From Candidatus Staskawiczbacteria bacterium (GTDB lineage: Bacteria; Patescibacteriota; Minisyncoccia; Minisyncoccales; Staskawiczbacteraceae), in contig JBAZYR010000005.1 of NCBI GenBank assembly GCA_041659225.1, forward strand, positions 7,282-71,281: 64,000 bases of DNA, written 5' to 3'. The position numbers and the translations under genes are program-made. Under the pieces are notes generated by a model. That model made no database searches and was not told the origin of the DNA. It saw only the letters and a list, made by a program, of their open reading frames with translations. Below are positions 12,832 through 42,407 of this stretch, in pieces (positions within the stretch are counted from its first letter, which is position 1; each line of letters opens with the position of its first letter).

Positions 12832-13146
12832 ATGATAAAGATGTTTATTGTTGAGTATTCCAAAATTGCGAAATTTCTTCTATGGGTACTTTTTAGTCTG
12901 TTTATGGTCGCCGAAGTGATCGCTATTCTCCAGCTCGATGTTACTCTTATCTGCCGAGTAACGGCCATTGAGATTGTAATCGTTTTATGCATTTATATAA
13001 TCCGAATTATTGTTCCGGAGCAATGGGTTGCAGCGTATAACGCAAAGCGTTTCTTCCGCTTAGACGAGATAGCTCCAGAGGAGGAGTTGGGATCGCCCCG
13101 CAGCGTAACACTCGAAAAAGAAGGAGACTCTGATGATAATGATTGA
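12832..13146 (+). CDS. small membrane protein (2 TM) with acidic C-terminus
   Basis: AAGGAGG RBS 6 nt upstream of ATG 12832 (internal start of the 12754 ORF). Hydrophobic segments FLLWVLFSLFMVAEVIAIL and IEIVIVLCIYIIRIIV. 4-nt overlap with the next ORF. Confidence 0.3.
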   Translation: MIKMFIVEYSKIAKFLLWVLFSLFMVAEVIAILQLDVTLICRVTAIEIVIVLCIYIIRIIVPEQWVAAYNAKRFFRLDEIAPEEELGSPRSVTLEKEGDSDDND

Positions 13147-13369
13147 CGCGGCAAAGTATTCAGGAAGCGCAGCAACAAAAGTACAAATCTTTCTTGGTGA
13201 AGCGATCTGTCAAATAGCTAAGGAAATCTTCAGTCCACTGAATCGTTACGGGGCCCAATGTGCCTTTGCGACTCATGAGCCGACAATCGACCAACTGGTT
13301 GATAACTACGTAAAGACCGGCGCTATGTGCAGATGCATCGAACGATTTTCCCGACGGGTCCAGACATGA
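13133..13369 (+). CDS. small Cys-containing protein, paralog A of a tandem pair (unknown family)
   Basis: 78 aa. AAGGAG upstream. Shares with the downstream ORF the conserved core IFS.LNRYG.QC.....H.PT..QL.DNY..TG. Confidence 0.35.
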   Translation: MIMIDAAKYSGSAATKVQIFLGEAICQIAKEIFSPLNRYGAQCAFATHEPTIDQLVDNYVKTGAMCRCIERFSRRVQT

Positions 13370-13405
13370 TTCGAATGGCCCGCTCTCGGTCCGAAAGGGG
13401 GTCGC

Positions 13406-13651
13406 ATGTTGACTCTTCACGTAATCCTTGAGATTGGTACACAAAGCGTTGTAGCGGACGTGGAAATCTGTACCGGATCAATTAACGAAATACTCAATGA
13501 TATCTTCAGCGGCCTGAATCGCTACGGCACGCAGTGTTACTACGGGGTTCACGATCCCACATTTAACCAACTATTCGACAATTATCAGCGTACCGGCGGA
13601 CTACAGAGACGCATTTCTTCGCTACCAAGAGCGAAAGCTCGCTGTCGATAG
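13406..13651 (+). CDS. small Cys-containing protein, paralog B of the tandem pair
   Basis: 81 aa. Purine-rich AAAGGGGG upstream. Conserved core shared with 13133..13369. Confidence 0.35.
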   Translation: MLTLHVILEIGTQSVVADVEICTGSINEILNDIFSGLNRYGTQCYYGVHDPTFNQLFDNYQRTGGLQRRISSLPRAKARCR

Positions 13652-13725
13652 ATTATGCATTCGTAATGCCCCACGGCCAAGCCAAGGGGTTTTTGTTTGG
13701 ATACGAAACGTGATAGGATATATTA

Positions 13726-21061: not shown

Positions 21062-21121
21062 ATATTTGTTGACTTCGCGTGGAGTCACGATAGTGTGTTC
21101 GTTGACATAGGAGTCTGTAAG

Positions 21122-22531
21122 ATGAAGCGAGGATGTTTTTACTACGTATCGGCCTTCATTGTTGCTTTCGCCATCGTCGGTTCGGCGATGGCTCAGCAAT
21201 CGACAAGCGCCCCTGCGGGCGCCGTGGCCAGCGATGGCAAAGTCGTTATCGCCGGTCAGCCGGGTGATTACAACATCATCTCGAGTGACGGTCAGTTAAC
21301 GATGCAGAGTTACGAAGTAACCGGGGTGTCTGTGGAAAGTAAGAGCACGCTGTACAAAGCGTTCCATAAGCTCCTGTCGAAAGACGGGCGTGGCGGGAGT
21401 GCCGAGGTGGCGCCGCTCACTCGGAACGGTAAGGAAATCATTCTTCTCATCGTAGCCGCGACACCCGAGATGCAACGTTCAATCGCGAAAACCGTTGAGC
21501 GGATCAACTCGGGAACCGTCGGCGCTTTCTGCTACACCCCAAAAAATGTGGTGTTCATTCCGAAGTATCGGTCGGCCGAGTCAATCGCTGCGGCTTTACG
21601 CGTGGAGATAACCAACATTGGTGTTCTCTACGTTGACCCGATTCTGAACGCGATAACGATCGAGGATGACGCCACCTACGTGGACTGGCTGGTCAATTAC
21701 GCACAAGAGTTTGACTCGCCACCTCCGCAGATTACGGCCATACTGCGTCTTGTCGCCATTGACAAGAACAATGACAGCAGTGTCGGAACGGATTGGGGTG
21801 CTCTGCTTGATGGACTTCCACCGTCGATTTCGCTAAGTATCGGCGGTGAACGTCAGATCTTATCGCGCTCGGGCGAAGTAAGCGTCGCCAACGGTGATCC
21901 GAGCCTTGCCCTGACAGGTTCGAAGCAAAGGCTTTCGCACCTGCCCATAACGAGTTTTTCTGCGGCGGTTAACGAGATTTCGCCGCAGGCGGTAGGAGCC
22001 TTCTTCAGTTATCTGGAAACAAAGGGCGTGTGTCGGATTCTCAACACCGCCGACATTAATGTGGTCAACGGCTCGCCGACGGTCGTAAGCACGGAAGTGA
22101 GTATGCCCGTCACCGCCACAGTCTCAAGCGAGACCGGCGGCAAGCTTCGCCAGGAAGTTTCGGTTTTAGAAGGTGTTAAGATTACGATCAGCGGAAGTTT
22201 GGCCACAATCGGCCATCGCCTGAATGTTCAGGCGAGCAGTACATCGGTGGTGAGTTATACTCGCACCGGCCTTCCGCTCATCGCGACGAGTACTCTTGAC
22301 ACCGCCGTCCAGCTGCCGCGCAACCGCACAATCACCTTATCGGGGTTGTCGCGGCAGAAGGAGGTCACGGTAACACACAAGCCTCCGGTACTCGGAGACT
22401 TGGATGTCTTGAACCTTTTCTCAAAAAAGGTCACCGAAACCAGGGAATGGAAACTGTATATTTGCATCACGGTGGTTGACCCGCCGGTTGCAACTCCAGC
22501 GACCACGAACCCTTCGGTTTCGGTCAATTGA
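21122..22531 (+). CDS. secretin-family protein (GspD/PilQ-like), short form, in a GC-elevated gene
   Basis: Signal peptide MKRGCFYYVSAFIVAFAIVGSAMAQQ. Secretin N-domain-like PQITAILRLVAID. C-terminal secretin motif GLSRQKEVTVTHKPPVLGDLDVLNLFSKK (cf. vPxLGdIPvLGxLFr). Visibly higher GC than the flanks. Confidence 0.55.
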   Translation: MKRGCFYYVSAFIVAFAIVGSAMAQQSTSAPAGAVASDGKVVIAGQPGDYNIISSDGQLTMQSYEVTGVSVESKSTLYKAFHKLLSKDGRGGSAEVAPLTRNGKEIILLIVAATPEMQRSIAKTVERINSGTVGAFCYTPKNVVFIPKYRSAESIAAALRVEITNIGVLYVDPILNAITIEDDATYVDWLVNYAQEFDSPPPQITAILRLVAIDKNNDSSVGTDWGALLDGLPPSISLSIGGERQILSRSGEVSVANGDPSLALTGSKQRLSHLPITSFSAAVNEISPQAVGAFFSYLETKGVCRILNTADINVVNGSPTVVSTEVSMPVTATVSSETGGKLRQEVSVLEGVKITISGSLATIGHRLNVQASSTSVVSYTRTGLPLIATSTLDTAVQLPRNRTITLSGLSRQKEVTVTHKPPVLGDLDVLNLFSKKVTETREWKLYICITVVDPPVATPATTNPSVSVN

Positions 22532-26627: not shown

Positions 26628-27003
26628 CCCCAAGCTTTATGCGATTGCTTTCTGCCAGGCAGTCAAAGAGGCAAAAACTGCAGATAGCATCAACAAGTGC
26701 ATTAAAAGCCTATTAGTTTTAGTTGAAAAAAACCGGGATCAAAAGAAGCTTAGGGATATTGCGTTCTTTGCAGAAAAGATCTTGAATAAGGAATCTGGAC
26801 ATAGAAAAATTTTAGTTGAAAGCGCACGAGTTTTAACCAAGGAAAACGAGGAAATGATCGATTCTTTTACTAAAAAAACCGACCAGGTTGTTAAAAAGAT
26901 AAACCCAAGTTTGGTTGCCGGCGTGAAAATAGTGATAGACGACGAGGTTCAAATCGACGGATCTTTTTCTAAAAAAATAAAAAGAGTATTAAATACGATA
27001 TAA
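26617..27003 (+). CDS. atpH: F0F1 ATP synthase subunit delta (OSCP), short form
   Basis: [15 protein letters not shown]... resembles the delta N-terminus (YA.ALF). Position between b and alpha. Only 128 aa. Confidence 0.55.
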
Positions 27004-27007
27004 AAAA

Positions 27008-28531
27008 ATGTCTTACGAAATAATCGAAAAATTAAAGCAGGCTATAGACGGCTATAAAGATACTGAAAAGCTCGAGCAAGTCGGACGAGTTATCGAATCG
27101 GGCGACGGAATCGTAAAGATTTACGGATTGAAAAACGTCAGGTCTCAAGAGGTTATTGTAATCGAAAGCGACAAGGGAGATGTAAGCGCCCTTGCTCTTA
27201 ATCTAGAAGAAGATTCAGTCGGAGCGCTGGTCTTGGGCGATCACGTTGGCATAAAAAGCGGGGACATTGTCAAAAGAACTAATAAATTATTATCAATTGA
27301 GGTGGGTAAGTCTTTGCTGGGGCGGGTTGTAAGTCCATTAGGCGAAGCACTTGATGGACGCGGTTCCATATTCACAAAAGAAAAATCGGAGTTAAGACCA
27401 TTGGAAAACGATGCTCCGTCTGTTCTGGAGAGAGAACCCGTTGATACGCCGCTTCATACTGGAATTAAAACAATTGATTCCATGATTCCTATCGGAAGGG
27501 GACAAAGAGAGCTTATTATCGGAGACCGCCAAACTGGAAAATCCGCCATTGTTATTGATACGATTATCAACCAACACGTTGATACGTATAGAAAGACGCC
27601 GGTTTGTATTTACGTTGCGATAGGCCAGAAAGAATCAAAGATTGCCAAGACTTTAGAGACTATAAAAAATGCCGGCGCATTAGATTATACAATTATTGTT
27701 TCAGCTCCGGCTTCTTCACCAGCAGCCTTATGGTATCTAGCCCCCTACGCCGGATGCGCTATCGGAGAGTACTTCCGGGATAACGGCCAAGACGCTGTCG
27801 TAATTTACGATGATTTATCAAAACACGCCTGGGCGTATCGGCAAATATCGTTGCTTTTGAGAAGGCCCCCGGGAAGAGAGGCCTATCCTGGAGATATTTT
27901 CTATCTGCATTCAAGGTTACTGGAGAGAGCTGCAAAACTTTCAAAGAAAAAAGGAGGCGGATCATTAACGGCCCTGCCGATCGTCGAAACCCAGCTCGGT
28001 GACGTTACTGCCTATATTCCTACCAACATCATCTCCATTACTGACGGTCAAATTTACCTTGAAAGCGATTTATTCTATCAGGGCGTAAGACCTGCAGTTA
28101 ACGTTGGTCTGTCTGTTTCCAGAGTCGGTTCAAAAGCCCAAACCCCTGCCATGAAGAAAATTGCGGGAAAACTAAGACTTGAACTTGCTCAATTCCGAGA
28201 GCTTCAGGCATTTATTCAATTTGCTTCGGATGTAGACGACGCAACTAAAAAGAAGATAAAAAGGGGACAGATTATTACTGAAATTTTGAAGCAGTCGGAT
28301 TTAGCCCCTATGCCGTTTGAAAAACAAATTATTATATTATTCGCCGCGCTCAATAACTATCTCGACGACGTCGAATCATCTGAATTATCTGAGTTGCAAG
28401 GTAAATTAGTCGAGAATATTGAAAAGCTGCACGACAAGGAGATATTAGAGCCTTTGAGAAAGACCGGAACCCTGGACAAAGAGACCGAAGAAAAATTAAA
28501 AGCCGCAATTGAAAACTTTATTACAAAATAG
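27008..28531 (+). CDS. atpA: F0F1 ATP synthase subunit alpha
   Basis: P-loop [23 protein letters not shown]. Canonical alpha length of 507 aa. Confidence 0.95.
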
Positions 28532-28533
28532 AC

Positions 28534-30860
<2,327 letters not shown>

Positions 30861-31106
30861 ATGAAGGTTCTTATTTACTCTTTAAAAAATACTCTATTCC
30901 AAGACGAAGCAATTTCCTTAAGTTGCAAAACTTCCTCGGGAGAAATTACGGTTTTAGATCATCACGAGCCTTTGATAACTAACATCGAAATGGGCCTGAT
31001 TAAGATAATTGACAAAAATCAAAAATCCAGCTATATTCAAGTCTCACGTGGGTTCCTTGAAATAAGAGCAAGCAACGAGGTCCGTTGCATAATTGAGGAG
31101 ACATAA
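30861..31106 (+). CDS. atpC: F0F1 ATP synthase subunit epsilon (N-terminal beta-sandwich only, short)
   Basis: Follows atpD directly. SSGEITVLDHHEPLIT matches the epsilon beta-sandwich (G..GILPgHaP.lt). 81 aa. Confidence 0.6.
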   Translation: MKVLIYSLKNTLFQDEAISLSCKTSSGEITVLDHHEPLITNIEMGLIKIIDKNQKSSYIQVSRGFLEIRASNEVRCIIEET

Positions 31107-31108
31107 CT

Positions 31109-31570
31109 ATGGGACAAGCCATCCAATTCACAACTCCAAGCGACCATTACGACTTTCGAAAAGAGAAGGGTTGTTGCATTCTTTGGTGCACAGATGCCCG
31201 ATTCACTCCAGCTTTAGACAAGTTTGTGGCTGAACGCGGATATATGCGCTACGATTTAATCCGTATCGCCGGTGGCGCGAACGTGTTGGCCACGCCCGAA
31301 GGAGACGGAGCAAGGTTTGTTATCGGTCAATTTGGCGCATTACACAACCTTCACCATTTTGATAGCATCATACTAATGATGCATCAGGATTGCGGAGCCT
31401 GCGGCGGAAGCAAGGCATTCGGGGACGATTGCGCGCGGGAATTACAGGATTTGAATTTACGACTATCCACCGCTTGCAAAGCCGTACGCGATAGCTTACC
31501 GTCAATCAAGGTGGAAACGGTTCTAGTGACCTTCAAGGAAATCATATCAATTCCGCAACCTGTTCTCTAA
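31109..31570 (+). CDS. beta-carbonic-anhydrase-fold protein (divergent, short)
   Basis: WCTDARF (CxDxR), IRIAGGANVL (cf. VVRNAGN) and MMHQDCGACGG (HxxCGA) reproduce the beta-CA zinc-ligand pattern. 153 aa. GC-elevated. Confidence 0.5.
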   Translation: MGQAIQFTTPSDHYDFRKEKGCCILWCTDARFTPALDKFVAERGYMRYDLIRIAGGANVLATPEGDGARFVIGQFGALHNLHHFDSIILMMHQDCGACGGSKAFGDDCARELQDLNLRLSTACKAVRDSLPSIKVETVLVTFKEIISIPQPVL

Positions 31571-31582
31571 AAGGAGGATCGG

Positions 31583-31846
31583 ATGAAGTTTACGACGAAG
31601 GCCGACTATTGGTATGGCAATCGACACGCGGTCGTTATTATCACCATTGAAGGTAAGGGTGGAAAGGTTTTTATCACAACCGAATACGAAAAGAAAATCG
31701 AAGCAGAAATGATTTATAACAAGATACAGTTGAGATTCGAGGCGCCGGGTGCCCACGGTACTCGTATATACATAGTTTTTAATGACACACATCATCCCCC
31801 GGTACCGATTGCTCAGATGTACAAAGAGCTCCACGGAGAATCGTGA
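31583..31846 (+). CDS. small hypothetical protein, tandem paralog 1
   Basis: AAGGAGG RBS. Shares KADYWYGNRHAVVIITIE / QAEYTYGDNRAITAQIIIE with the next ORF. ATGA overlap with the next ORF. Confidence 0.4.
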   Translation: MKFTTKADYWYGNRHAVVIITIEGKGGKVFITTEYEKKIEAEMIYNKIQLRFEAPGAHGTRIYIVFNDTHHPPVPIAQMYKELHGES

Positions 31847-32127
31847 TGAATGTGAAATTCAATGTCCAAGCGGAATACACTTACGGTGATAATAGGGCAA
31901 TCACAGCTCAAATCATTATCGAAAGAACGCCAACTGGAATCTTCATAACCAACCTAGCTGAACTTCCTGTGAAAGTAACGATGCGTTTTGACGCTGTGCA
32001 ATCCAAATTGATTTTTGAAGAAACTGCCGCGAATGGAAAGCGTGTTCACACGATTTCCGAAAAACATCTATCGCCTCACGAAATCGCTGATATGCATACA
32101 GCTCTTCTACTTGGCAAAACTCAATGA
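31843..32127 (+). CDS. small hypothetical protein, tandem paralog 2
   Basis: Paralogous to 31583..31846. Translationally coupled to it. Confidence 0.4.
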   Translation: MMNVKFNVQAEYTYGDNRAITAQIIIERTPTGIFITNLAELPVKVTMRFDAVQSKLIFEETAANGKRVHTISEKHLSPHEIADMHTALLLGKTQ

Positions 32128-32184
32128 ATAATAGGCTCGCGAATCCGCTGGCCTTTTTCTTTACAAAAAGGTTTGGTATAATAG

Positions 32185-32838
32185 ATGAAGAAATATATGT
32201 TAAAATATTTTGAACGTGGCATATCCACGCCTGTCGCAATCGCAATAATCATTATTGCCCTGCTGGTTATATCTGGCGGTGTGTTGGTTGGCATATATTC
32301 TGATCAACTAAATATTTTTCCCCCCGTGCCAAATTCAGTAAATCCGGAATCGAATGAAACCGAGGCTCTTGGTAATGAAGAATTATTATTCGCTATTAAT
32401 AGAAGTATTTTTTCTATACCAGGAGATGGGACTGACGAGAATAAAACAATCCAACTGGCGAACGGCCAGTATTTTGAAGAAAACTATTCGGCGACTATCG
32501 GAATGGTCTTGTTGGGAGATTTAGATAATGATAGTAAAAACGATGCGGTAGTATCGATATATGTATCGCGTAATAAAACTTCACCTAGCGTATATTTAAT
32601 GGTTGTGTTGAACCGGGCTGGAGCCATCACGAACGTGCCAGACGCGACAATAAAATTAGATGCAGGAACCCGGGTGAACTTGATTGATATCAAGGATGGG
32701 ATTCTTAGCGTTAGTGCGACTGCCAGTGACGCAACACCTAACCCGGACGGCAGCATAACAATCTCGCCGGGCGCAGATACCACGTTTTTAATGTATAGGT
32801 ACACTGGGAAATCTTTAAGATTATTAAATAATAACTAG
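32185..32838 (+). CDS. membrane-anchored hypothetical protein
   Basis: N-terminal TM VAIAIIIIALLVISGGVLVGIY. Extracytoplasmic beta-rich domain. No recognisable motif. Confidence 0.4.
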   Translation: MKKYMLKYFERGISTPVAIAIIIIALLVISGGVLVGIYSDQLNIFPPVPNSVNPESNETEALGNEELLFAINRSIFSIPGDGTDENKTIQLANGQYFEENYSATIGMVLLGDLDNDSKNDAVVSIYVSRNKTSPSVYLMVVLNRAGAITNVPDATIKLDAGTRVNLIDIKDGILSVSATASDATPNPDGSITISPGADTTFLMYRYTGKSLRLLNNN

Positions 32839-32853
32839 TAATTATATTAAAAT

Positions 32854-33300
32854 ATGAATAAGATCGCTATTGTTATTCTCCTCGGTATAGTTTTAATCGG
32901 CTTAGCCGTTGCATATATATTCTTAAACCCAAAAATTAATAAAAATATGGGAAATCCTAACTCAACTGATATTCAAGGCATGAAAGTAGAAGTTCTGAAA
33001 GAGGGAACCGGTGACGCAGTTGAAAATGGAATGACAGTTATGGCACACTATGTCGGAACATTGGAAGACGGAACAAAATTTGATTCCAGTATAGATAGGG
33101 GACAGCCATTTCCTTTTACCCTAGGCGTCGGCCAGGTTATAAAAGGCTGGGATTTAGGCGTAGTTGGCATGAAGGTAGGGGAGAAGCGGCGGCTTACTAT
33201 CCCGGGTAATCTTGGCTACGGCGAAAACGGCATACCCGGATTAATCCCATCTAATTCTACGTTGATATTTGAGGTGGAACTGATTTCATTTACAAAATAA
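32854..33300 (+). CDS. FKBP-type peptidyl-prolyl cis-trans isomerase, membrane-anchored
   Basis: [43 protein letters not shown] and [10 protein letters not shown] are the canonical FKBP motifs. Confidence 0.8.
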
Positions 33301-33332
33301 AGGTCGCGGGAATAAATTAAGATTAAAATATT

Positions 33333-33545
33333 ATGTTTTTAGGAATTATATTTTTAGTAGTCGGTGTCGCCCTTTTATTGAATAGCTTCGGATTCCTTAA
33401 CGTCAGCTTTTGGGGATTTTTCTGGGCAGCTCTGTTCATCATTGTGGGAATAAAAATACTTATGGGCAAAGATCACTGTTGCCTCGTTGGCTCTCACATG
33501 AAAAAACACAAATGCTGCGGTGGAGATCACGACGACGCTGAATAA
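33333..33545 (+). CDS. small membrane protein with C-terminal CC..H..CC motif
   Basis: 70 aa. Two TM segments. C-terminal HCCLVGSHMKKHKCCGGDHDD. Confidence 0.35.
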   Translation: MFLGIIFLVVGVALLLNSFGFLNVSFWGFFWAALFIIVGIKILMGKDHCCLVGSHMKKHKCCGGDHDDAE

Positions 33546-34292
33546 ATCCTGAGAGACTTTCGAAAGTCGCTTTACGCTGTCGCGTTCAGCGATTTTTTGT
33601 TAATATATATAGCAATCTCTTGACAGGTTTTACAATCCATGCTATCGTATTACTATACTTTACGATTATGCCGAGGATAGAAATTGCTGACTTTCCAATG
33701 AACTACTCGGGATAAATTCACGATTAGTTCTTTGGATGGTTGGCAGGCTCGCTTTTAAAGGTGAGCTGTCCGCTATCCTACAGGCCGCGTCCGACAGTTG
33801 GTGGGCGAGCGAACATAGACTCGAGGGTTTCCAAAAAATTAGGGCAATGCTAGTTGAGTCGCCGACGGCTTTCCACGTCGACGTGATACTCTCGCGTTGT
33901 GGATCTTCGGTGCAACGGGTGCCGAAACCTAGGCAGCGGTCAAGGGCCTACCCGAAAATCTTGACTGGGAACCCACCCACCAACTGTCACTTGTTCATTG
34001 AAAACAAAAGTAGAAACAGAACTTCGCGCTATCGTTCGCGTGAACGAAAGACGAAGTTTTCTTACTGAGGAGTACACTTTATGCGCACCCTTCGCCACCC
34101 GGTCATGTTTGCGATTATCTTCTGTGCGCACCGCCGGCACCGCCACGGTCAGCCCTGACCACGTCGGCACGGGCCCGCTAGCGCCCGAATCAAGATAGTC
34201 CTATGGATGGGCTGATTCGGGTTCTGGCGAAAGACCCAAGAGGAGGAACACATATGTTCCCCAAGGACCCTCCGTTCTACTAAAGACAAACG

Positions 34293-34342
34293 AGGGCAGG
34301 AACGTCTCATGGCCGAGGACGCATTCCTGCCCCTCTTTTTTT
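34293..34342 (+). terminator. rho-independent terminator (GGGCAGGAA...TTCCTGCCC + TCTTTTTTT)
   Basis: 9-bp perfect stem arms (GGGCAGGAA / TTCCTGCCC) followed by a T7 run. Confidence 0.55.
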
Positions 34343-34354
34343 ACATAAATATCC

Positions 34355-34382
34355 TTGACAAATCTCAGTATTTTATTATAAT
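34355..34382 (+). promoter_or_regulatory. sigma70-like promoter TTGACA-16-TATAAT for the nfeD-flotillin operon
   Basis: TTGACA at 34355-34360. TATAAT at 34377-34382. Confidence 0.5.
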
Positions 34383-34515
34383 AAGCACACTAAAGGCAAG
34401 CGGACTTGCCCGAAGAGTTCGTTGACAAGTTGGAAGGAGAGTCGAACAAATGAAATAAAATTCGCATATCGTATCGGTTTGTAGACGCAGGCCATGAAAC
34501 GAAAGGAGACAGGCC

Positions 34516-35046
34516 ATGTTGGTGTTCTTTACGGTTGCTTTGATCGCATTTTTGTACGTGGTGCTGGGATTTATTCTCGGCCACGCCCATGACGTCGGCC
34601 ATGACATTCTAAGTCATGACGCGGATCATGAGGGTGCCGATGGCCACATGATCAGTATTTTCTCGACGCGAGTAATCGCCACCTTTATGATGGCTTTTGG
34701 AGCTGCTGGAGGAGTTTTCAAGTTTTACAATTTCAACTATCCTCTTTCATGCCTTGGTGGCATCGGCGCCGGCATAGTCGTGTCTATTCCCATTTATTTC
34801 TTACTGAATTTCATCGCGAAACAACAATCGAATTCTTTAGTGTTGACATCCTCTTTAGTCGGACTTTCTGGAGTTACGGAAACGGCAATGGAGGGGAATA
34901 TCATGGGCGAGGTTGCGGTGTTCGCGCTGGGCCGGCGTAACATTTACCAAGCCGTCTCTCGCTTGGGTAAGCCCATCGCCAAAGGATCGGCCGTGCGCGT
35001 GGTGAGAACCATGGGAAGTGACTTGGTTGTGGAAGTTCTGGCCTGA
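34516..35046 (+). CDS. NfeD-like membrane protein (short form, C-terminal OB-fold)
   Basis: Three N-terminal TM helices. C-terminal LGKPIAKGSAVRVVRTMGSDLVVEVLA matches the NfeD beta-domain. Sits upstream of an SPFH gene. Confidence 0.55.
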   Translation: MLVFFTVALIAFLYVVLGFILGHAHDVGHDILSHDADHEGADGHMISIFSTRVIATFMMAFGAAGGVFKFYNFNYPLSCLGGIGAGIVVSIPIYFLLNFIAKQQSNSLVLTSSLVGLSGVTETAMEGNIMGEVAVFALGRRNIYQAVSRLGKPIAKGSAVRVVRTMGSDLVVEVLA

Positions 35047-35084
35047 GTCGCGGAATCGCGACCGAAAGATAAGGAGAAGAGATT

Positions 35085-36752
35085 ATGATATCAGCGGTAG
35101 ACATCGCTCACACATTGGGGCAGTATTTGATCCCCATACTCGTTATACTGTTCTTCATCGCCGTCATCATCATGCTACGCGTGATGGTGAGCCGCTACCA
35201 GAAGATCCCGCCCAATAAGGTGGCGATCATCTTCGGACGCGGCACCAAGGTTGGGGGTGAGGGACAGATCCAGGGATGCAAGGTCGTCAGCGGCGGAGGC
35301 GTATTCGTCTGGCCAGTGTTCCAGTCGATCGACTACATGGACACCGCGGCCTTCCGAATGGCCATCAACGAAACGGGCGTCCCCAACAAAGAGAACGTGG
35401 GGATTAACGTTGCGGGTGTGGCGGTCTGCAAGATATCCACCTCACCCGAGGATCTACAGAGCGCTGCGATGTCCTTTCTCGGCCAGTCGCAGGCCCAGAT
35501 CCAGGAGACCATCTCCAGCGTCCTCATCGGCCATTTGCGTTCCATCATCGGTAAGCTGGACATCGACGGAATCCTTCGGGATCGCGATTCCTTCAACCGC
35601 ATGGTGGTGAACGAGTCGAACCCCGAGTTGAAGCGCATGGGGATCCAGATCGTCACCCTGGTCATTCAGGAAGTCAGTGATGAGCACGGCTACATCGCCG
35701 CGTTGGGTAAACGTGCGGTGGCCGAAGCCGTCAGGGATGCCGATATCAAAGTCGCACAGGCGCAAGCAGCGACGAGAATGTCGGTCAGCCAAGCCCAGCG
35801 AGAAGCGTCGGTTGTCGAGGCTCAGAATGCCGTTGCGATTGCTGATGCGGAAAAGGACCGCGACATCAAACGCGCTACCTTCAAGGCCGCAGCCGACACG
35901 GAGTTGGCCTTGGCTAACCAAGCCCTGGCCATTGCCACCGCGGCACAGGAGCAAATCCTGCGCGTTGCTCAGGCGGATCGGGATACAGCCGCAGCCGACG
36001 CACAAACCAAGGTCCAGGAGGCCGAGGCAAAGCGCATGGAGCAACAGCTCCAGGCCACGGTGATCAAGCCGGCAGAGGCCGAAAAGTCAGCGGCTATCAT
36101 CAAGGCCGAAGGGCTGAAGCAGGCTGCGATCCTCGAAGCCGAGGCACAGGGTCAAGTCGTGATTTGCAAAGCCGAAGGCGATGCAACTGCGGCGAAGAAA
36201 CTGGGTGAAGGTATGGCAGCGCAAACGCTGGCCACTCTCACTGCCAAGGCTCAGGGCGAAGCCGCCGTGACGGAGCAAGCCTTACTGGCAAAGGCCAAGG
36301 GCGAAGCCGCTCAGAAAGGCCTCGTTCTCACAGCCGAAGCCGAGGGCACGAAAAAGCTGGCGGACGCGCTGGCTCAGATGACCGAATCAGCCCGGCTGAT
36401 TCTGATTTTGGACCGGTTGCCGATACTGATGGATCGGGGCGGCGAAGCAGCCTCAAAGGTTGCACAAGCCGTATTTTCCAGCGTTGCGGCACCGTTCGGC
36501 CAGATCGACAGCCTGCGGATCGTCGACATGGGCGGTAACGGCAAAGCGCTCGAAGGGTTAGGCGATATTGTGCCCAACACCGTCTTCAAGTTCCTCGCCG
36601 GCATGCAAGCCCGCGGGATCGACATCAAGAAGGTTCTCGCCAAGCTCGGCATCGACGCCGACGAGATCACCAGTATGCTGAACGAGCTGGGATCGACCAT
36701 TCGACCGGTCGTGGCAGCCGGAGATCTCGTGTCGGACTCCGATCCGGCATAA
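35085..36752 (+). CDS. flotillin-like SPFH/band-7 protein
   Basis: N-terminal TM. SPFH core. Long Ala/Glu/Lys/Gln-rich coiled coil (AEAQ repeats). 555 aa. GC-elevated. Confidence 0.8.
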   Translation: MISAVDIAHTLGQYLIPILVILFFIAVIIMLRVMVSRYQKIPPNKVAIIFGRGTKVGGEGQIQGCKVVSGGGVFVWPVFQSIDYMDTAAFRMAINETGVPNKENVGINVAGVAVCKISTSPEDLQSAAMSFLGQSQAQIQETISSVLIGHLRSIIGKLDIDGILRDRDSFNRMVVNESNPELKRMGIQIVTLVIQEVSDEHGYIAALGKRAVAEAVRDADIKVAQAQAATRMSVSQAQREASVVEAQNAVAIADAEKDRDIKRATFKAAADTELALANQALAIATAAQEQILRVAQADRDTAAADAQTKVQEAEAKRMEQQLQATVIKPAEAEKSAAIIKAEGLKQAAILEAEAQGQVVICKAEGDATAAKKLGEGMAAQTLATLTAKAQGEAAVTEQALLAKAKGEAAQKGLVLTAEAEGTKKLADALAQMTESARLILILDRLPILMDRGGEAASKVAQAVFSSVAAPFGQIDSLRIVDMGGNGKALEGLGDIVPNTVFKFLAGMQARGIDIKKVLAKLGIDADEITSMLNELGSTIRPVVAAGDLVSDSDPA

Positions 36753-36820
36753 GCTGAGTTGGGGAGGCGAGGAGACAATCTTCTCGCCTCCCTCTCTCGG
36801 TATAAAGAAGGAGAGATGGC

Positions 36821-37390
36821 ATGCAAAAAGCCCGCGAACAAGTATCACCACCACTAGTGGTTGTGAGTGAACCGCCGAAAACCGGTGGCGGCGAGGCCTT
36901 AACGCCCGGAGCCGCCCAGTTCTATTCCGCGGTTGTCAACCCACAGCCAACCGCCGTGGTTATTCATTGCAGCGATCCAAGATTTCAAACCGCTTTCCGC
37001 GAATTCATTGAAACGGAATTAGGCCTGTCCGATGGACAGTATATTCCTTTCGTGATCGCGGGAGGAGCTGGAGTGTTGAGCCGACCTGAGGCCCTGCCGA
37101 AGGAATTCCGCTTCATGCGGGAGCGCCTGGAACTCTTCCGAGAGCACTTCAAATCGATAAGGCGGGTAATCCTGATCAACCATGAGGACTGCGCATACTA
37201 TCATAGTTTGTGCGAAAAAAGCTGGGCTCTCCGAACTCTCGCGCACCTTTTGCCGCGGGATGACATGAAGCTCATCGCTCAGGTTTTTCATCGCTTGCTG
37301 TCCCACCTTGGGATGCAAGTGGAACTCTATCACGCAAAGTTCTCCGATGACGAACGCACGCGAATCGTGTTTGAGCGAATAGAGCAATAG
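36821..37390 (+). CDS. beta-carbonic-anhydrase-fold protein, paralog of 31109..31570
   Basis: HCSDPRF (CxDxR), FVIAGGAGVL and ILINHEDCAYYH (HxxC). AAGGAG RBS. Confidence 0.45.
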   Translation: MQKAREQVSPPLVVVSEPPKTGGGEALTPGAAQFYSAVVNPQPTAVVIHCSDPRFQTAFREFIETELGLSDGQYIPFVIAGGAGVLSRPEALPKEFRFMRERLELFREHFKSIRRVILINHEDCAYYHSLCEKSWALRTLAHLLPRDDMKLIAQVFHRLLSHLGMQVELYHAKFSDDERTRIVFERIEQ

Positions 37391-37449
37391 AAATAACTTT
37401 CAAACCCCAAAGGACTCTAACCTGCGGGGTCTTCTTTTATACCAAATCA

Positions 37450-37479
37450 TTGACACATATTCTGAGAGGGGGATATAAT
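37450..37479 (+). promoter_or_regulatory. sigma70-like promoter TTGACA-18-TATAAT driving a ~520-nt unit without a long ORF
   Basis: TTGACA at 37450-37455. TATAAT at 37474-37479. The unit ends at the terminator at 37970-38015. Confidence 0.45.
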
Positions 37480-37773
37480 ATAATAATTGTTGCGCTATTT
37501 GCTTCGCAATGTGCGAGCAAAGCGCTCCGAAGGTCGCTCGTTTACAAGGAGTACGGTGTCATGTGCAAGATCGTTTTGTTTCGCGGGATTTGCAGTGGCC
37601 AGAGTGCGGACAAGATCATCGTCAGCACGACGGTCGTGGCGGCGCCGCTCCTAGCCTAGTTGGGACATGGGAGCAGACCAGTCGTCTGTAGGCAACGCGC
37701 ACACATTCAAAACTGGCATCGCTAAGTTGCGAGGCCACCCGAGTGGAAGACCACACACAAGGAGAACCTGACA

Positions 37774-37920
37774 ATGACCAACACAAAGTGGCCGACTGGC
37801 CACGGGACGACCAACAGCAAATGCTCACGGCGCAAGAAGAACCTGGCGGGGCATAACTCCAGAAGCAAGGGGCACGCCGCCGCCCATCACATTCACGCAC
37901 ATAGCCAGCACACAGGCTGA
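37774..37920 (+). CDS. candidate small His-rich protein (48 aa) with canonical RBS
   Basis: AAGGAG at 37759-37764, 9 nt before ATG. Peptide MTNTKWPTGHGTTNSKCSRRKKNLAGHNSRSKGHAAAHHIHAHSQHTG. Below the 60-aa ORF-track threshold. Confidence 0.25.
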   Translation: MTNTKWPTGHGTTNSKCSRRKKNLAGHNSRSKGHAAAHHIHAHSQHTG

Positions 37921-37969
37921 TGACAAGGCCTAGCCTGGTGAGGGCGCACAGAGGCGCCGTATAGGCGCA

Positions 37970-38015
37970 GGGGAGCAGGTAAGCTATAAAGGGCTTTCCT
38001 CGCTCCCTTTTTTTA
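37970..38015 (+). terminator. rho-independent terminator (GGGAGC...GCTCCC + T7)
   Basis: GGGGAGCAGG...CCTCGCTCCC hairpin followed by TTTTTTTATTTG. Confidence 0.5.
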
Positions 38016-38024
38016 TTTGTTCTC

Positions 38025-38051
38025 TTATCACTCTTGACAAGAGAGTGATAT
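38025..38051 (+). promoter_or_regulatory. CIRCE-like operator (TTATCACTC-N9-GAGTGATAT) overlapping the hrcA promoter
   Basis: Inverted repeat matching the CIRCE consensus TTAGCACTC-N9-GAGTGCTAA at 14/18 positions. TTGACA at 38034-38039 lies in the N9 spacer. Confidence 0.65.
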
Positions 38052-38071
38052 TTTCTTATCATACAAATATC

Positions 38072-38788
38072 ATGGATTCCTTAACTAAAAGACAAGAGAA
38101 AATTCTGGAGGCTTTAATTAACGAATACGTTAAGACAGCCGAACCTGTAAGTTCAAAACTCTTGGCAAAGAAGAGGGAATTTGATATATGCCCGGCAACC
38201 ATCAGGAACGAACTGCAGGAGCTAACGGACAAAGGATATATTTATCAGCCCCATACGTCAGCGGGCAGGGCACCGACAACAAAGGCCTACCGGTTTTTTG
38301 TCGATAGGGTTTTTAATATCGAGCATGATTTATCCTTCGAAACCTTTTTTGATATGTTCAATGAAATTGAAGAACGGACCCGCGACGAGTTTAAATATAT
38401 CGAGGAAGTATCAAAGAACCTTGCTTCTGAAACCTCGAATCTCATCCTAACTTATCTTGAAGGCCGGGATTTTGTACTTAAGGAAGGTTGGGAAGATATT
38501 CTGCAGAACCCGGAATTTTTAGAAAAGTCATTCTTAGATAAATTTATTCAAGAGGTTGAGTATCTGGAGAAGAATATTAAAAAGATAGCTGCAGAAAGCA
38601 ATTCGGAGATAAACGTATACATCGGCAACGAAAACCCAATTATGAAATCGGACGGATTCAGTTTGATTGTCACAAAAGGAGTGTTCCCGAACAATGAAAA
38701 AGGGGTAGTGGTGATGCTCGGGCCTTCGCGAACAGGATACGAACGGAATATTTCACTTTTAAAATCATTAATTAAATCTTTGGAATAA
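38072..38788 (+). CDS. hrcA: heat-inducible transcription repressor HrcA
   Basis: N-terminal winged-helix LTKRQEKILEALINEYVKTAEPVSSKLL. Upstream CIRCE. The ORF-track start 38045 lies inside CIRCE, so ATG 38072 is preferred. Followed by grpE-dnaK-dnaJ. Confidence 0.8.
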   Translation: MDSLTKRQEKILEALINEYVKTAEPVSSKLLAKKREFDICPATIRNELQELTDKGYIYQPHTSAGRAPTTKAYRFFVDRVFNIEHDLSFETFFDMFNEIEERTRDEFKYIEEVSKNLASETSNLILTYLEGRDFVLKEGWEDILQNPEFLEKSFLDKFIQEVEYLEKNIKKIAAESNSEINVYIGNENPIMKSDGFSLIVTKGVFPNNEKGVVVMLGPSRTGYERNISLLKSLIKSLE

Positions 38789-38789
38789 C

Positions 38790-39299
38790 ATGCATAAAAA
38801 AGATGATACAATCGCCGACGACGTTTCCCCTGAAGATACTTCGCCTGAGCCAAACCTGATCGAAGAGCTAAAGAAGCAAAAAGAAGAGTATCTAAGCGGC
38901 TGGAAGCGCGAAAGAGCAGATTTCCTGAACTATAAGCGCGAGGAGATGGAAAGAATTACAGATTTAATGAAATATGCTTCCGCTGAGTTGATTATAAAAC
39001 TGTTGCCGATACTTGATAACTTCATGGTTGCAGAGCAAAATATCCCACCGGAAGTTAAAGAAGATAAAAATATCGCAGGGCTTTTACAGATAAACCAGCA
39101 GTTAAAAGTTTTTCTGAAGTCTCAAGGCATTGAAGAAATAAAGGCAGTGGGAGAGAAATTCGATCCAAATTTCCATGAGGCAGTCGACGAAATAGAAGCG
39201 GAAGGAAAGGAGCACGGAATAATTGTCGAAGAAACTCAGCGCGGCTATACGCTGTATTCCAAAGTAATTAGGCCGTCAAAAGTAAAAATTGCAAAATAA
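38790..39299 (+). CDS. grpE: nucleotide exchange factor GrpE
   Basis: [14 protein letters not shown] and [14 protein letters not shown] motifs. 169 aa. Confidence 0.85.
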
Positions 39300-39316
39300 T
39301 TAAAATAATAAAAAAC

Positions 39317-41224
39317 ATGTCAAAAATTATTGGTATTGATCTCGGTACAACATTCTCGGCCGTTGCTGTTATGGAGGCCGGCCAGGCAAAAATCGTCGAA
39401 AACAAGGAAGGAACCAGAACTACGCCTTCAATTGTGGCAATGACTAAAGCCGGCGAGAGGCTCGCTGGAGTTTTAGCCCGCAGGCAGCAAATTACAAACC
39501 CTAAAAATACTATTTATTCCGTCAAAAGATTAATCGGCCGAAGATTTTCGGATAAAGAAGTCCAGACCGATAAAAAACTTCTGCCATACGAAATGAAGGA
39601 AGCCAACGACGGCGGAGTGGAAGTCAAACTTGGGGACAAGTGGCACAAAGCACCGGAAATATCTGCAATGATTTTACAAAAGCTACGACAGGACGCCGAA
39701 GAAAAACTCGGAGAAAAAATAACTGATGCAGTTATTACCTGCCCGGCATACTTTGACGACTCTCAAAGGAAAGCTACAAAAGTGGCGGGAGAAATTGCGG
39801 GCTTGAATGTAAAAATGATATTGAATGAACCAACAGCTGCTGCCTTAGCTTATGGCTTAAACAAGAAAAAGAACGAACAGGTATTAGTTTATGACTTCGG
39901 CGGAGGAACCTTCGACGTTTCCGTATTGGATATCAGGAAGGATCCGGACACGGTTGAGGTAATCGGCGTTGGAGGAGATACGCACCTTGGCGGTGATGAC
40001 TTTGACCAGAAAGTAATGGGCTGGATTATTGATACCTTTAAAAAAGAGCAGGGGATTGATTTATCAAAAGATCAGCTAGCCCTGCAAAGAATCAAGGAGG
40101 CGGCTGAGAAAGCAAAGATTGAATTATCCACCGCTATGGAAACGGAGATAAATCTTCCGTTTATTACGTCGGACGCATCCGGTCCTCAACATCTTTACTA
40201 CAAACTAACTCGGGCTCAATTAGAAAATTTAGTTAAGGAATATCTTGACCGATCCATTAAATTGGTTGACGAAACCTTGAAAGGAGCAAAGCTATCGGCC
40301 AAAGATATCGAGGAAATTGTTTTAGTCGGCGGACAAACAAGAATGCCCGCAATGCAGGAAGCTGTAAAACAATACTTCGGAAAGGAACCGAATAAATCCA
40401 TCAACCCGGATGAAGTTGTTGCCATCGGCGCGGCCATTCAAGGCGCAATAATGGGCGGAGATGCAAAAGAAGTTTTACTCTTAGATGCAACTCCATTGTC
40501 TTTAGGCATTGAAACCTACGGAGAGGTAAATACTGTTTTGATTGCTAAAAACACGATTTATCCTGCCTCCAAGACCCAGGTCTTTTCAACCGCTGCGGAC
40601 AGCCAAACCTCGGTAGAAGTTCATGTACTGCAGGGTGAAAGGCCAATGGCGCATGATAACAAAACAATGGGCCGGTTCATTTTAGACGGTATTCCGCCAG
40701 CTCCGCGCGGTGTCCCCCAGGTTGAAGTCAGTTTTGACGTTGATTCAAACGGAATTCTTAATGTATCAGCTAAGGATAAGGCAACCGGCAAATCCCAGTC
40801 GATACGAATTGAGGGAACTATTGGAATGTCAAAGGATGAAATAGAGAAAATGACGAAGGAAGCGGAATTGCACGCTGAAGAGGATCGCAAGAAAAAAGAC
40901 TTGATTGAATCAAGGAACCTAGCGGACCATTTAATATATACCTGCGAAAAAACCATTAAAGACGCAGGCGACAAGATTTCCCCTGAGCAGAAAAAAGAAG
41001 TTGAGGAGAAGTCTGAAGCGTTGAAGAAACTAAAAGATGGTGATAATATAGAAGAAATTAAAGCAAAAACCCAGGAGTTGTCTCAAATAATTCAGAAGAT
41101 TGGAACAGATTTGTATAAAGCGCAGCAAACACAACCCGGACCACAGCCCGAAACACAGCCGGGTAATGAAGAAAAAAAGGGACCCGAAGGGGCCGAGGAA
41201 GGGGAGTATAAAGAGAAAAAATAA
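39317..41224 (+). CDS. dnaK: molecular chaperone DnaK (Hsp70)
   Basis: [24 protein letters not shown] and [10 protein letters not shown] Hsp70 signatures. 635 aa. Confidence 0.95.
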
Positions 41225-41227
41225 TAA

Positions 41228-42322
41228 ATGCCAAAGGATTACTACGCAATTTTAGGCGTCGCTAAAAATGCTTCTCAAGAAGAGGTGAAAAAAGCTTTTC
41301 ACCAGCTTGCGCATAAACATCATCCTCACAAGGGCGGAGACGAAAAGAAATTTAAGGAGATAAACGAAGCATACCAAGTTCTTTCGAGCAAAGAGAAAAG
41401 GGCGCAGTATGATCAATTCGGCCAGGTTTTTGACGGCGCAAACCCCGGCGGAGGCCAGCAAGGATGGGATCCTAATTGGTTTTGGGGGAGGCAAGGTCAA
41501 AATGTTGAGTTTGATATGGGCGACCTCGGAGATGTGTTTGGTGACATATTCGGTTTTAATTCGCGCAGCAATCGAAGAACAAAAGATATTAAAAAGGGTT
41601 CGGATATAAAAATCGAACTGGAAATATCTTTAGAAGATACACTGAGGGAATCCAAAAAAATTATTTCCCTCAAAAAATTAAATGCCTGTGGCCGCTGCCA
41701 AGGAAACGGGGCCGAGCCGGGGACGAAAGTAAACGAATGCTTTTCTTGTCGGGGTACAGGCCAAGTCCAGCAGATAAGAAAGACGATACTTGGATCTTTT
41801 ACCCAGACCACAATATGCCCTGAGTGCGGAGGAGAAGGCCAACGACCTGATAAACCCTGTAATGTTTGCCGCGGCGAAGGCAGGGTAAAAGGGGAACAGG
41901 ATATAGAAATATTCGTTCCTGCTGGAGTTGATACAAATCAACTGATCAAAATACCTGGAAAGGGTAACGCCGGCAGGAAGAACGGAAAGCCGGGCGATTT
42001 GTATATCCGAATAAGCGTAAAACCGCATGCGATTTTTAACCGAAGAGGAGATGATTTGTTTATCTTAAAGGAAATCGCTTTCAGTCAGGCGGCACTGGGA
42101 GATGAGATTGAAATACCAACTATAGAACGAACCGCCATTCTTTTAAACGTTCCCTCTGGCGTAGAATCGGGAAAAGTGTTAAAAATATCTGGTAAGGGAA
42201 TTCCTCGCTTTGGAGGCCGGGGAAGAGGGGATTTCTACGTCCAATTGATCGTTAAAACGCCGACAAAATTAAGCAGAAAACAGAAAGAATTGCTTGAACA
42301 ATTAAAAAGAGAGGGTCTTTAG
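41228..42322 (+). CDS. dnaJ: molecular chaperone DnaJ
   Basis: J-domain DYYAILGV...HPHKGGDE. Four CxxCxGxG zinc-finger repeats. 364 aa. Confidence 0.9.
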   Translation: MPKDYYAILGVAKNASQEEVKKAFHQLAHKHHPHKGGDEKKFKEINEAYQVLSSKEKRAQYDQFGQVFDGANPGGGQQGWDPNWFWGRQGQNVEFDMGDLGDVFGDIFGFNSRSNRRTKDIKKGSDIKIELEISLEDTLRESKKIISLKKLNACGRCQGNGAEPGTKVNECFSCRGTGQVQQIRKTILGSFTQTTICPECGGEGQRPDKPCNVCRGEGRVKGEQDIEIFVPAGVDTNQLIKIPGKGNAGRKNGKPGDLYIRISVKPHAIFNRRGDDLFILKEIAFSQAALGDEIEIPTIERTAILLNVPSGVESGKVLKISGKGIPRFGGRGRGDFYVQLIVKTPTKLSRKQKELLEQLKREGL

Positions 42323-42332
42323 GATATATCAC

Positions 42333-42407
42333 GCCCCTATAACTCAATGGTAGAGTAACAGCCTTTTAAGCTGTGAGTTGCAGGTTCGAGTCCTGCTGGG
42401 GGCACCA
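42333..42407 (+). tRNA. tRNA-Lys (anticodon UUU), CCA encoded
   Basis: Cloverleaf folded manually. Acceptor GCCCCUA/UGGGGGC. Anticodon stem ACAGC/GCUGU with loop CUUUUAA. T-arm GCAGG-UUCGAGU-CCUGC. 3' ACCA. Confidence 0.8.

Follow-up and report, generated by a model that had tools for sequence, protein, structure and literature searches.

The stretch of DNA analysed here (64,000 nt, referred to as the window) comes from a contig of Candidatus Staskawiczbacteria, a bacterium of the candidate phyla radiation (CPR), and carries a GC-rich segment at 33550–38020. Four transcription units are readable from the sequence of this region: a GC-rich unit A, a three-gene operon, a second GC-rich unit B, and the hrcA operon (Table 1). 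The three-gene operon encodes an NfeD-like membrane protein, a flotillin, and a protein of the beta-carbonic-anhydrase (beta-CA) fold that we refer to as the CA-like protein; together, the three genes are called the module. An earlier reading of the letters by a model (the original prediction) had named an NfeD-like protein, a 555-aa flotillin-like SPFH protein and a divergent protein of the beta-CA fold, and family and fold searches bear out all three calls. It had also stated that hrcA-grpE-dnaK-dnaJ resumes immediately after the segment, and that operon does follow at 38045. Its further suggestion, a GC-elevated island at 33550–38020 with a membrane-microdomain module from a higher-GC donor, is narrowed by our analysis. 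We conclude that the stretch at ~34355–37439 is probably a single operon gained horizontally by the CPR host from higher-GC non-CPR bacteria, that a CPR relative (locus L003) likely gained it separately, and that the flanking units are best placed outside the transferred block. Throughout, L-numbers denote fetched loci and P-numbers homologous proteins.

Table 1 Features of the flotillin operon, its flanking units and the distant CA-like paralogue (positions in the window)
Feature	Position	Strand	Basis and remarks
Native distant paralogue of the CA-like gene	31109–31570	+	PF20393 E = 2.6e-6; G+C at third codon positions (GC3) 0.50
Unit A promoter-like site	33620–33648	+	TTGACA-17-TATCGT, TG-extended -10, 10/12 matches
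Unit A, ~690 nt, GC 52.5%	33655–34342	+	Intrinsic terminator, stem ~34292–34335 plus T-run
Operon promoter	34355–34382	+	Perfect sigma-70 consensus TTGACA-16-TATAAT, 12/12 matches
Putative operon 5' leader, ~130 nt, with Shine–Dalgarno (SD) site (aaaggaga) ahead of the NfeD start	34383–34515	+	Read from the sequence
NfeD-like membrane protein, 176 aa	34516–35046	+	PF01957; GC3 0.562
FloT-type flotillin (SPFH2), 555 aa	35085–36752	+	PF01145, NCBIfam FloT, PDB flotillin-1/2
Beta-carbonic-anhydrase-fold protein, 189 aa	36821–37390	+	AlphaFold2 model, Foldseek, zinc motif
Operon intrinsic terminator	37404–37439	+	Stem 37411–37433, T-rich tail (scan)
Unit B promoter-like site	37450–37479	+	Perfect consensus TTGACA-18-TATAAT, 12/12 matches
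Unit B, ~540 nt, GC 56%, A-rich, U-poor	37480–38016	+	Terminator ~37970–38016
hrcA promoter overlapped by CIRCE-like inverted repeat	38026–38062	+	Promoter 38034–38062, 11/12 matches; repeat 38026–38050

The first protein of the operon has a His/Asp-rich N-terminal loop, hydrophobic segments and a C-terminal OB-type partner-binding domain. Taken alone, it matches PF01957 over residues 113–173 with E = 4e-4, which is below threshold (20.9 versus 29.1 bits), and the same profile is matched by 13 of 13 members of its family (best E = 1.9e-8). A profile built from the family matches two structures in the PDB, the stomatin-operon partner 3wwv (3.7e-4) and YuaF 2k14 (2.5e-3). The gene is co-oriented with the flotillin gene and lies directly upstream of it across a gap of 38 nt, and an NfeD gene precedes the SPFH gene in 53 of the 56 module loci that we tabulated. 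The protein thus has both features of an NfeD family member of the NfeD2 (YuaF/YqiJ) type, the C-terminal OB domain and the position upstream of an SPFH gene.

In the flotillin, a membrane segment at the N-terminus is followed by an SPFH domain and by a coiled coil rich in Ala and Glu. The SPFH profile (Band_7, PF01145) is matched over its full length at residues 40–228 (E = 5.3e-26), and the NCBIfam FloT profile is matched with E = 1e-68 from position 5 to 473 of 477. The score of 232.5 bits does not reach the FloT equivalog cut-off (NF058507, 700 bits), and by these profiles the window protein belongs to the flotillin family but does not count as a strict orthologue of FloT. Over residues 67–432 it matches flotillin-2 (E = 1e-35) and flotillin-1 (E = 4e-34) of the eukaryotic flotillin-1/flotillin-2 complexes in the PDB (9bq2, 9l3g), and the similarity reaches past the SPFH domain into the coiled-coil 'flotillin' region. 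Since both the SPFH domain and the coiled coil are covered, a large oligomeric, membrane-attached assembly is likely. The eukaryotic complex is a heteromer, whereas the window flotillin is a bacterial protein encoded by a single gene and has an NfeD partner.

The third protein is more divergent. Pfam family PF20393 (Pro_CA_2) matches it with E = 1e-3 and 19.6 bits, below the gathering cut-off of 30 bits, and a PDB sequence profile reaches only E ~0.8. The AlphaFold2 model, computed with 31 homologues, has a pLDDT of 89.1 and a pTM of 0.80; the first ~40 residues are of lower confidence (block-mean pLDDT 66–88) and have no predicted secondary structure. The best 50 Foldseek matches of the model in the PDB are all beta-CAs, 17 of them at E <= 0.001 (best E = 4e-5), with TM-scores of only 0.37–0.46. 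The sequence contains the motif C50-S-D52-P-R54 ... H121-E-D-C124 (CxDxR ... HxxC). Compared at the sequence level, 31 family members show no variation at C50, R54, H121 and C124 and almost none at D52. The protein therefore resembles known beta-CAs (Pisum 1ekj, M. thermoautotrophicum Cab 1g5c, H. influenzae 2a8c, and PF20393) in the fold of those best 50 matches and in the Cys-x-Asp-x-Arg ... His-x-x-Cys motif, but it differs from them in its low identity (11–16%), its low TM-scores, its short core of ~150 residues and its sub-threshold PF20393 match. Judged by the predicted model, it is a divergent member of the beta-CA fold. This fold is also found in other hydrolases. The CA-like protein has no signal peptide.

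A second member of the fold family lies at 31109–31570, outside the GC-rich segment. It shares 35% identity with the CA-like protein of the operon over an 81-residue BLASTP alignment (1e-7) and follows directly after atpC. Since the same atpC–paralogue synteny is found in the relative L009 (8615–9088), we regard this paralogue as native. The genome appears to hold both a resident and an imported member of the family.

The expression signals of the operon are distinct from those of its right-hand neighbour. The hrcA promoter carries a repeat resembling the controlling inverted repeat of chaperone expression (CIRCE), TTATCACTC-N-GAGTGATA, which overlaps the -35 box and is the sole CACTC-N-GAGTG site in the window; a scan of the entire window found no CIRCE-like element ahead of units A and B or of the three-gene operon. 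In the relatives L003, L009, L077, L079 and L015 the same element is conserved at the hrcA promoter, and in the window the hrcA promoter with its CIRCE-like repeat forms the right-hand boundary of the variable region. From these signals we infer that the operon would be expressed from its own consensus promoter, without CIRCE control.

The module stands out from the window in composition. The window averages 43.1% G+C, while 33550–38020 has 54.2%, compared with 41.6% in the 10 kb to its left and 43.1% in the 10 kb to its right. The original prediction had described a rise from an AT-rich backbone across roughly 33.7–37.9 kb, with about 60% G+C at 35221–35280; both observations hold, the latter stretch having 61.7%. 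The 500-bp windows outside the span have a mean GC of 0.424 ± 0.040 and exceed 0.52 at one other place only (21.0–22.6 kb). The original prediction had further proposed comparing GC, codon usage and tetranucleotides, and the deviation is present in GC, in GC3 and in tetranucleotides. Against a background of 54 other open reading frames (ORFs) of the window (GC3 0.438 ± 0.046), GC3 is 0.562 for NfeD (z = 2.7), 0.726 for flotillin (z = 6.3) and 0.582 for the CA-like gene (z = 3.1). The tetranucleotide L1 distance between the island and the rest of the window is 0.453, compared with 0.150 ± 0.018 for windows of equal size (z = 16.7), and the GC-normalised tetranucleotide correlation is 0.61, compared with 0.877 ± 0.037.

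Because the GC excess is present at synonymous sites, it is not merely a matter of amino-acid content. This bears on the proposal that no transfer took place and that functional constraint on native genes, such as the Ala/Glu-rich coiled coil or mRNA structure, raised the GC. We consider such an origin very unlikely. The flotillin gene does have a GC of 0.595, 16.9% Ala and a raised GC1, and in several unrelated low-GC genomes the module has a higher GC than its host, as would suit a functional cause; GC3, however, is independent of amino-acid content and lies 6.3 standard deviations over background, and highly expressed native genes (dnaK, atp) have no such bias. The nearest relatives of the window genome have no module, one of them with an empty site, and the nearest homologues are non-CPR, as described below.

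The abruptness of the compositional change could also suggest that a high-GC fragment was joined into a CPR contig by chimeric assembly or binning contamination. An independent Logan assembly (SRR6484324, 15.4 kb) is identical to window 27002–42405 at 100% identity without gaps, both junctions included, so a chimeric join is unlikely. In addition, several repositories list the contig at 785 kb, promoters and terminators in the consensus style of the native genes frame the insert, and an independent CPR genome, obtained from other samples, shows a comparable arrangement. With these observations an artefact becomes extremely improbable.

We examined the distribution of the module in other genomes. 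A first scan of genome contigs, with a single flotillin protein as query, gave no match. Among the homologues collected, the closest copies of the module lie on contigs of 52–66% GC, and two such contigs have non-CPR gene content: L004, with Rnf, URO-D, fatty-acid synthase and E1 dehydrogenase genes, and L005, with URO-D. The next-best flotillins are only 63–66% identical to the window protein, and homologues from named organisms are 44–57% identical. The hosts of the latter include Verrucomicrobiota, Planctomycetota (Brocadiia, Pirellulales and Sedimentisphaerales among them), Bacteroidota, Ignavibacteriota, Myxococcota, Acidobacteriota, KSB1, one gammaproteobacterium and one Saccharibacteria genome. 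Best-hit taxonomy, which the original prediction had put forward as a check on a foreign donor, therefore leads to GC-rich contigs, two of them with non-CPR content, and to named hosts in other phyla. The order NfeD–flotillin–CA-like is kept in ~35 of the 49 named genomes, across many phyla; the three genes therefore constitute a conserved cross-phylum operon. In the high-GC hosts among them, the GC of the homologue equals that of its flanks.

In three other low-GC genomes (L075 2867–5119, L064 5419–8337, L067 5405–8136) the GC of the module is likewise raised above that of its host; these genomes comprise a contig of 41% GC (L075) and metagenome-assembled genomes of a Saccharibacteria and a gammaproteobacterium. 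The recurrence of a GC-elevated module in several low-GC genomes suggests either repeated export from high-GC lineages or selection on the GC of the operon.

The hrcA regions of CPR relatives were gathered by a search with HrcA. Of these genomes, L003 alone shares the module with the window (L008 belongs to the same lineage as L003). In a tree of DnaK and GrpE, L003, L009, L077 and L079 form a clade that excludes the window (197/200), within which L009 and L079 are sisters (200/200); the window belongs to a larger group with L017 and L078 (200/200). The hrcA-upstream site has no module in L009, L079, L077 and L017. L077, which has the L003-type synteny, shows a clean empty site consisting of LpxC, a 120-nt spacer with a terminator and the CIRCE promoter, and hrcA. 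In L003 the module lies directly upstream of hrcA with GC3 values of 0.67, 0.83 and 0.61, compared with 0.42–0.51 for its neighbours.

Neighbour-joining trees of single proteins (200 bootstraps for flotillin, 100 replicates for the CA-like protein) place the two CPR copies apart. The window flotillin forms a clade with P0002–P0019 (200/200), but it is never the sister of the L003 protein (0/200), and the window and L003 CA-like proteins are sisters in only 2 of 100 replicates. The L003 flotillin groups with that of L002 (59% GC) to the exclusion of the window (200/200), in a group that also includes L005 (57% GC), L006 (66% GC) and the low-GC contig L075. The distances of the window flotillin to outgroups are not inflated, with no sign of rate acceleration. 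The insertion point differs as well: in the window, units A and B lie on either side of the module, and in L003 both units precede it and the module abuts hrcA. Because of the trees, the differing insertion point and the phyletic pattern, two separate acquisitions into one variable region are the most economical reading and, as far as these sequences indicate, most likely account for the window and L003 modules.

It is conceivable that a CPR ancestor carried the module upstream of hrcA, by a single ancient gain or by vertical presence, with losses in L009, L079, L077 and L017 and strong later divergence. The shared locus, directly upstream of the hrcA region in both the window and L003, and the common 200/200 flotillin clade are what one would expect from such a history. 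We nevertheless judge it unlikely, since the two copies are not sisters in either tree, the L003 copy is nested among contigs of 57–66% GC, at least three losses would be needed, including in the nearest relatives of L003, and the position relative to the flanking units is not the same. Moreover, at 35% amino-acid divergence the synonymous sites should have equilibrated, yet GC3 remains at 0.73 and 0.83. The original prediction had taken close homologues from the same lineage in the same synteny as evidence against transfer: L003 does carry the module at the same locus, but its copies are not the sisters of those in the window. The neighbour-joining trees would also accommodate a later xenologous replacement of an older copy at this locus in place of two plain gains.

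Several observations weigh against horizontal gain of the operon as we read it. We found no mobility signature: there are no flanking direct repeats at the borders of the module, no tRNA nearer than 42333, and no integrase-like ORF in 31–41 kb. Two independent gains at the same locus are a coincidence that needs explanation. GC3 is high in both CPR lineages and in the low-GC hosts L075, L064 and L067, a pattern for which selection, instead of recency, may be partly responsible. The trees are neighbour-joining trees of single proteins, and the 'non-CPR' status of the closest relatives rests on gene content and GC. Lastly, homology between the window units and the units of relatives was not detected at the level of sequence or peptide.

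Units A and B remain to be placed relative to the transferred block. Each has its own promoter and terminator signals, and by these signals A and B are separate transcription units. The original prediction had described GC-rich flanks bounded by promoters and terminators and without a convincing long ORF, which agrees with the signals at each unit and with the results for coding content. On the plus strand of unit A the sole SD-preceded ORF of at least 12 aa encodes 25 aa (34081–34158). Unit B has three candidate SD-preceded ORFs, at 37561–37659 (32 aa), 37743–37856 (37 aa) and 37774–37920 (48 aa), and two more overlapping candidates that start at 37556 and 37563. A Pfam search of 10 of the 12 frames of both units, with stops masked, gave no family at threshold; in five of six frames each, unit B had two weak sub-threshold matches (E = 0.03 and 0.59) and unit A none. 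The reading of the units as decayed genes was rejected. In tblastx against the window and ~75 loci they gave only noise; their six-frame translations scored negative with hidden Markov models (HMMs) of the flotillin and CA-like families; and an antisense 146-aa ORF at 37622–38062, called by one gene caller, matched only itself and one low-complexity sequence among 1.84 billion representatives.

The predicted folds of the units are more stable than those of shuffled sequences, at -262.7 kcal/mol for unit A (z = -5.97) and -205.7 kcal/mol for unit B (z = -3.70), with the terminators contributing part of this stability. Rfam 15 gave no match to the units, either at the gathering threshold for the whole window or at E <= 10 for 33300–38200, and at E <= 1 it detected only tRNAs on L003, L009 and L015. 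Searches of the units against the fetched loci by blastn and tblastx gave no match, and no unit sequence was found beside ~55 non-CPR copies of the module.

Comparable units are present upstream of hrcA in the CPR relatives. L009 and L079, which have no module, each contain two promoter- and terminator-bounded units of 280–425 nt and 57–58% GC in genomes of ~41% GC; in L003 there are two (54–55% GC), which sit on the same side of the module, and L015 has at least one. Their coordinates are 6553–7200 in L003, 9190–9980 in L009 and 9192–9945 in L079. Since similar units stand upstream of hrcA in relatives without the module, we place units A and B outside the imported block, on grounds of position and architecture. 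The equivalence of the window units with those of the relatives rests on position and architecture only, because homology is undetectable: pairwise local alignment against shuffles, MAFFT and blastn found in common only the terminators and two short blocks (35 nt in L003 and L079; 26 nt in L003 and L009), and RNAalifold on two sequences, the second units of L003 and L009, gave a weak consensus.

In the relatives, the units change very fast. Between L009 and L079, dnaK is 82% identical at the nucleotide level (54% at third positions), while promoters, SD sites and terminators are the only parts of their intergenic regions that align. The units contain SD-preceded small ORFs of 31–47 codons with the motifs '(E/T)HYGG', 'FGLV..HD' and 'T-K-K-I-A-D-G'. 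The YGG codons vary synonymously, and alignment scores lie 5–9 standard deviations over shuffles; outside the shared motifs, the rest of each unit changes at a roughly neutral rate. No Pfam family matched these small ORFs, and an exact look-up of eight candidate peptides found only one previously called as a gene elsewhere. In the relatives, these units probably encode small proteins and have structured leaders. No match to the window units was obtained with an HMM of the HYGG peptides. A 27-nt block, GGCACTGCGTTAAGGTCGCAGGTTAGC, is identical in L003 (6648–6674) and L079 (9444–9470); it includes a 5-bp hairpin and overlaps a 13-codon ORF ending …HCVKVAG. Neither the window nor L009, the sister of L079, has the block, and a scan of viral contigs for it gave no match.

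These results argue against the view, in keeping with the original prediction, that 33.6–38.0 kb forms one island whose brackets are structured noncoding RNAs functionally tied to the flotillin module. That view draws on the GC of the units (52–56%), similar to that of the operon, on their fold z-scores of -6.0 and -3.7, on their position exactly flanking the operon, and on the absence of a demonstrable homologue of the window units in relatives. Yet comparable units lie upstream of hrcA without a module in L009 and L079, both units of L003 lie on one module side, similar flanking sequence is found at 0 of ~55 non-CPR module loci, no Rfam family is matched, and each unit has its own promoter and terminator. 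An island of this extent is hence quite doubtful, and the description of the units as structured noncoding is unproven: the fold scores are suggestive, and the comparable units of the relatives carry conserved small ORFs. The part of the original prediction that stands is the horizontal acquisition of the three-gene module from a higher-GC donor, on the evidence of composition, absence in relatives and homologues; the transferred block is best placed at ~34.35–37.44 kb, as one operon.

A wider reading, which we regard as rather unlikely, would make the hrcA-upstream region a recurrent landing site for foreign GC-rich DNA that is also home to fast-evolving, lineage-specific GC-rich mini-genes. 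The window units would then belong to this class as extremely diverged members, or would be derivatives that act as RNA only. Separately, the CA-like protein would be an unrecognised, near-obligate third subunit of a widespread flotillin–NfeD machine. The mini-genes may each consist of a consensus promoter, a 5' hairpin, an SD-preceded ORF of ~25–50 codons and a terminator, and by analogy their peptides, with a conserved N-terminal '(E/T)HYGG' and a hypervariable tail, may resemble a leader-plus-core precursor or another arms-race peptide.

Under the reading that we prefer, a single operon gained from higher-GC non-CPR bacteria, the operon would have landed in the variable region immediately upstream of the hrcA operon, under a consensus promoter and a terminator of host type. 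From what is known of these families, the flotillin would use its N-terminal hydrophobic segment to insert into the membrane and would oligomerise on the inner membrane face, by way of the SPFH domain and coiled coil, to form a scaffold for membrane microdomains. The polytopic NfeD protein would be the cognate accessory that binds flotillin through its C-terminal OB domain, and the CA-like protein, with its intact zinc motif, may be a conserved third partner, probably cytosolic.

The operon can be compared with the NfeD2–flotillin operons of B. subtilis (yuaF-floT(yuaG)) and E. coli (yqiJ-yqiK). The order is the same, with the NfeD-like gene first and flotillin second, as are the N-terminal membrane segment, SPFH domain and Ala/Glu-rich coiled coil of the flotillin, and the window NfeD family profile matches the C-terminal OB domain of YuaF. 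The window operon differs in that its flotillin scores well below FloT (232 versus 700 bits), in that its third gene encodes a beta-CA-fold protein where B. subtilis has yuaI, and in that its host is a CPR bacterium. NfeD–flotillin operons are known to have a patchy distribution, with frequent lateral transfer of SPFH–NfeD operons (Hinderhofer et al. 2009, PMC2636767).

As in genomic islands acquired by horizontal gene transfer, the module combines atypical synonymous composition, with outlying GC, GC3 and tetranucleotides, absence in relatives, and an incongruent neighbour-joining gene tree with homologues in other phyla. Unlike such islands, it has no integrase, tRNA/att repeats or mobility genes, consists of one operon of ~3.1 kb, and carries host-type expression signals. 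Transfer of this kind is already known, and the present case is an ordinary event in an unusual host; less familiar are the CPR host, a locus that apparently captured the module more than once, and the conserved CA-like third gene. We found nothing specific in the literature on a flotillin–NfeD–carbonic-anhydrase association or on CPR flotillins.

Three further observations were made in passing. A 478-aa ORF at window 21095–22531 (+) is a second compositional outlier (GC 0.547, GC3 0.634) with weak matches to the secretin family (PilQ 1e-12; also GspD, MshL and SctC), and an outer-membrane secretin-like gene of foreign composition is unexpected for a CPR genome. An LpxC-family protein is encoded immediately upstream of the hrcA region in L003 (5682–6509), L077 (4172–4999) and L079 (8266–9129). 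LpxC belongs to the lipid A deacetylase family, and CPR-type bacteria are generally thought to have no lipopolysaccharide; the gene is thus unusual in these relatives. Lastly, in the intergenic stretch at window 13134–13690 (+, 48% GC) there are two paralogous repeats in tandem that look coding, …IFSPLNRYGAQC…DQLVDNYVKTG… and …IFSGLNRYGTQC…NQLFDNYQRTG…; these are probably small ORFs and do not appear in ORF listings of >=120 aa for this part of the window.

Our findings do not overturn current understanding. They indicate that long GC-rich 'noncoding' stretches in AT-rich genomes may conceal small-protein genes rather than structured RNAs. The beta-CA-fold third gene in the NfeD–flotillin operons of many phyla offers a concrete partner for flotillin biology. 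The genomes of CPR bacteria are minimal, and the cells are thought to rely on lipids taken from a host. A flotillin operon that was imported and is still intact, and that apparently entered two related CPR lineages separately, suggests that membrane organisation is worth importing for CPR cells.

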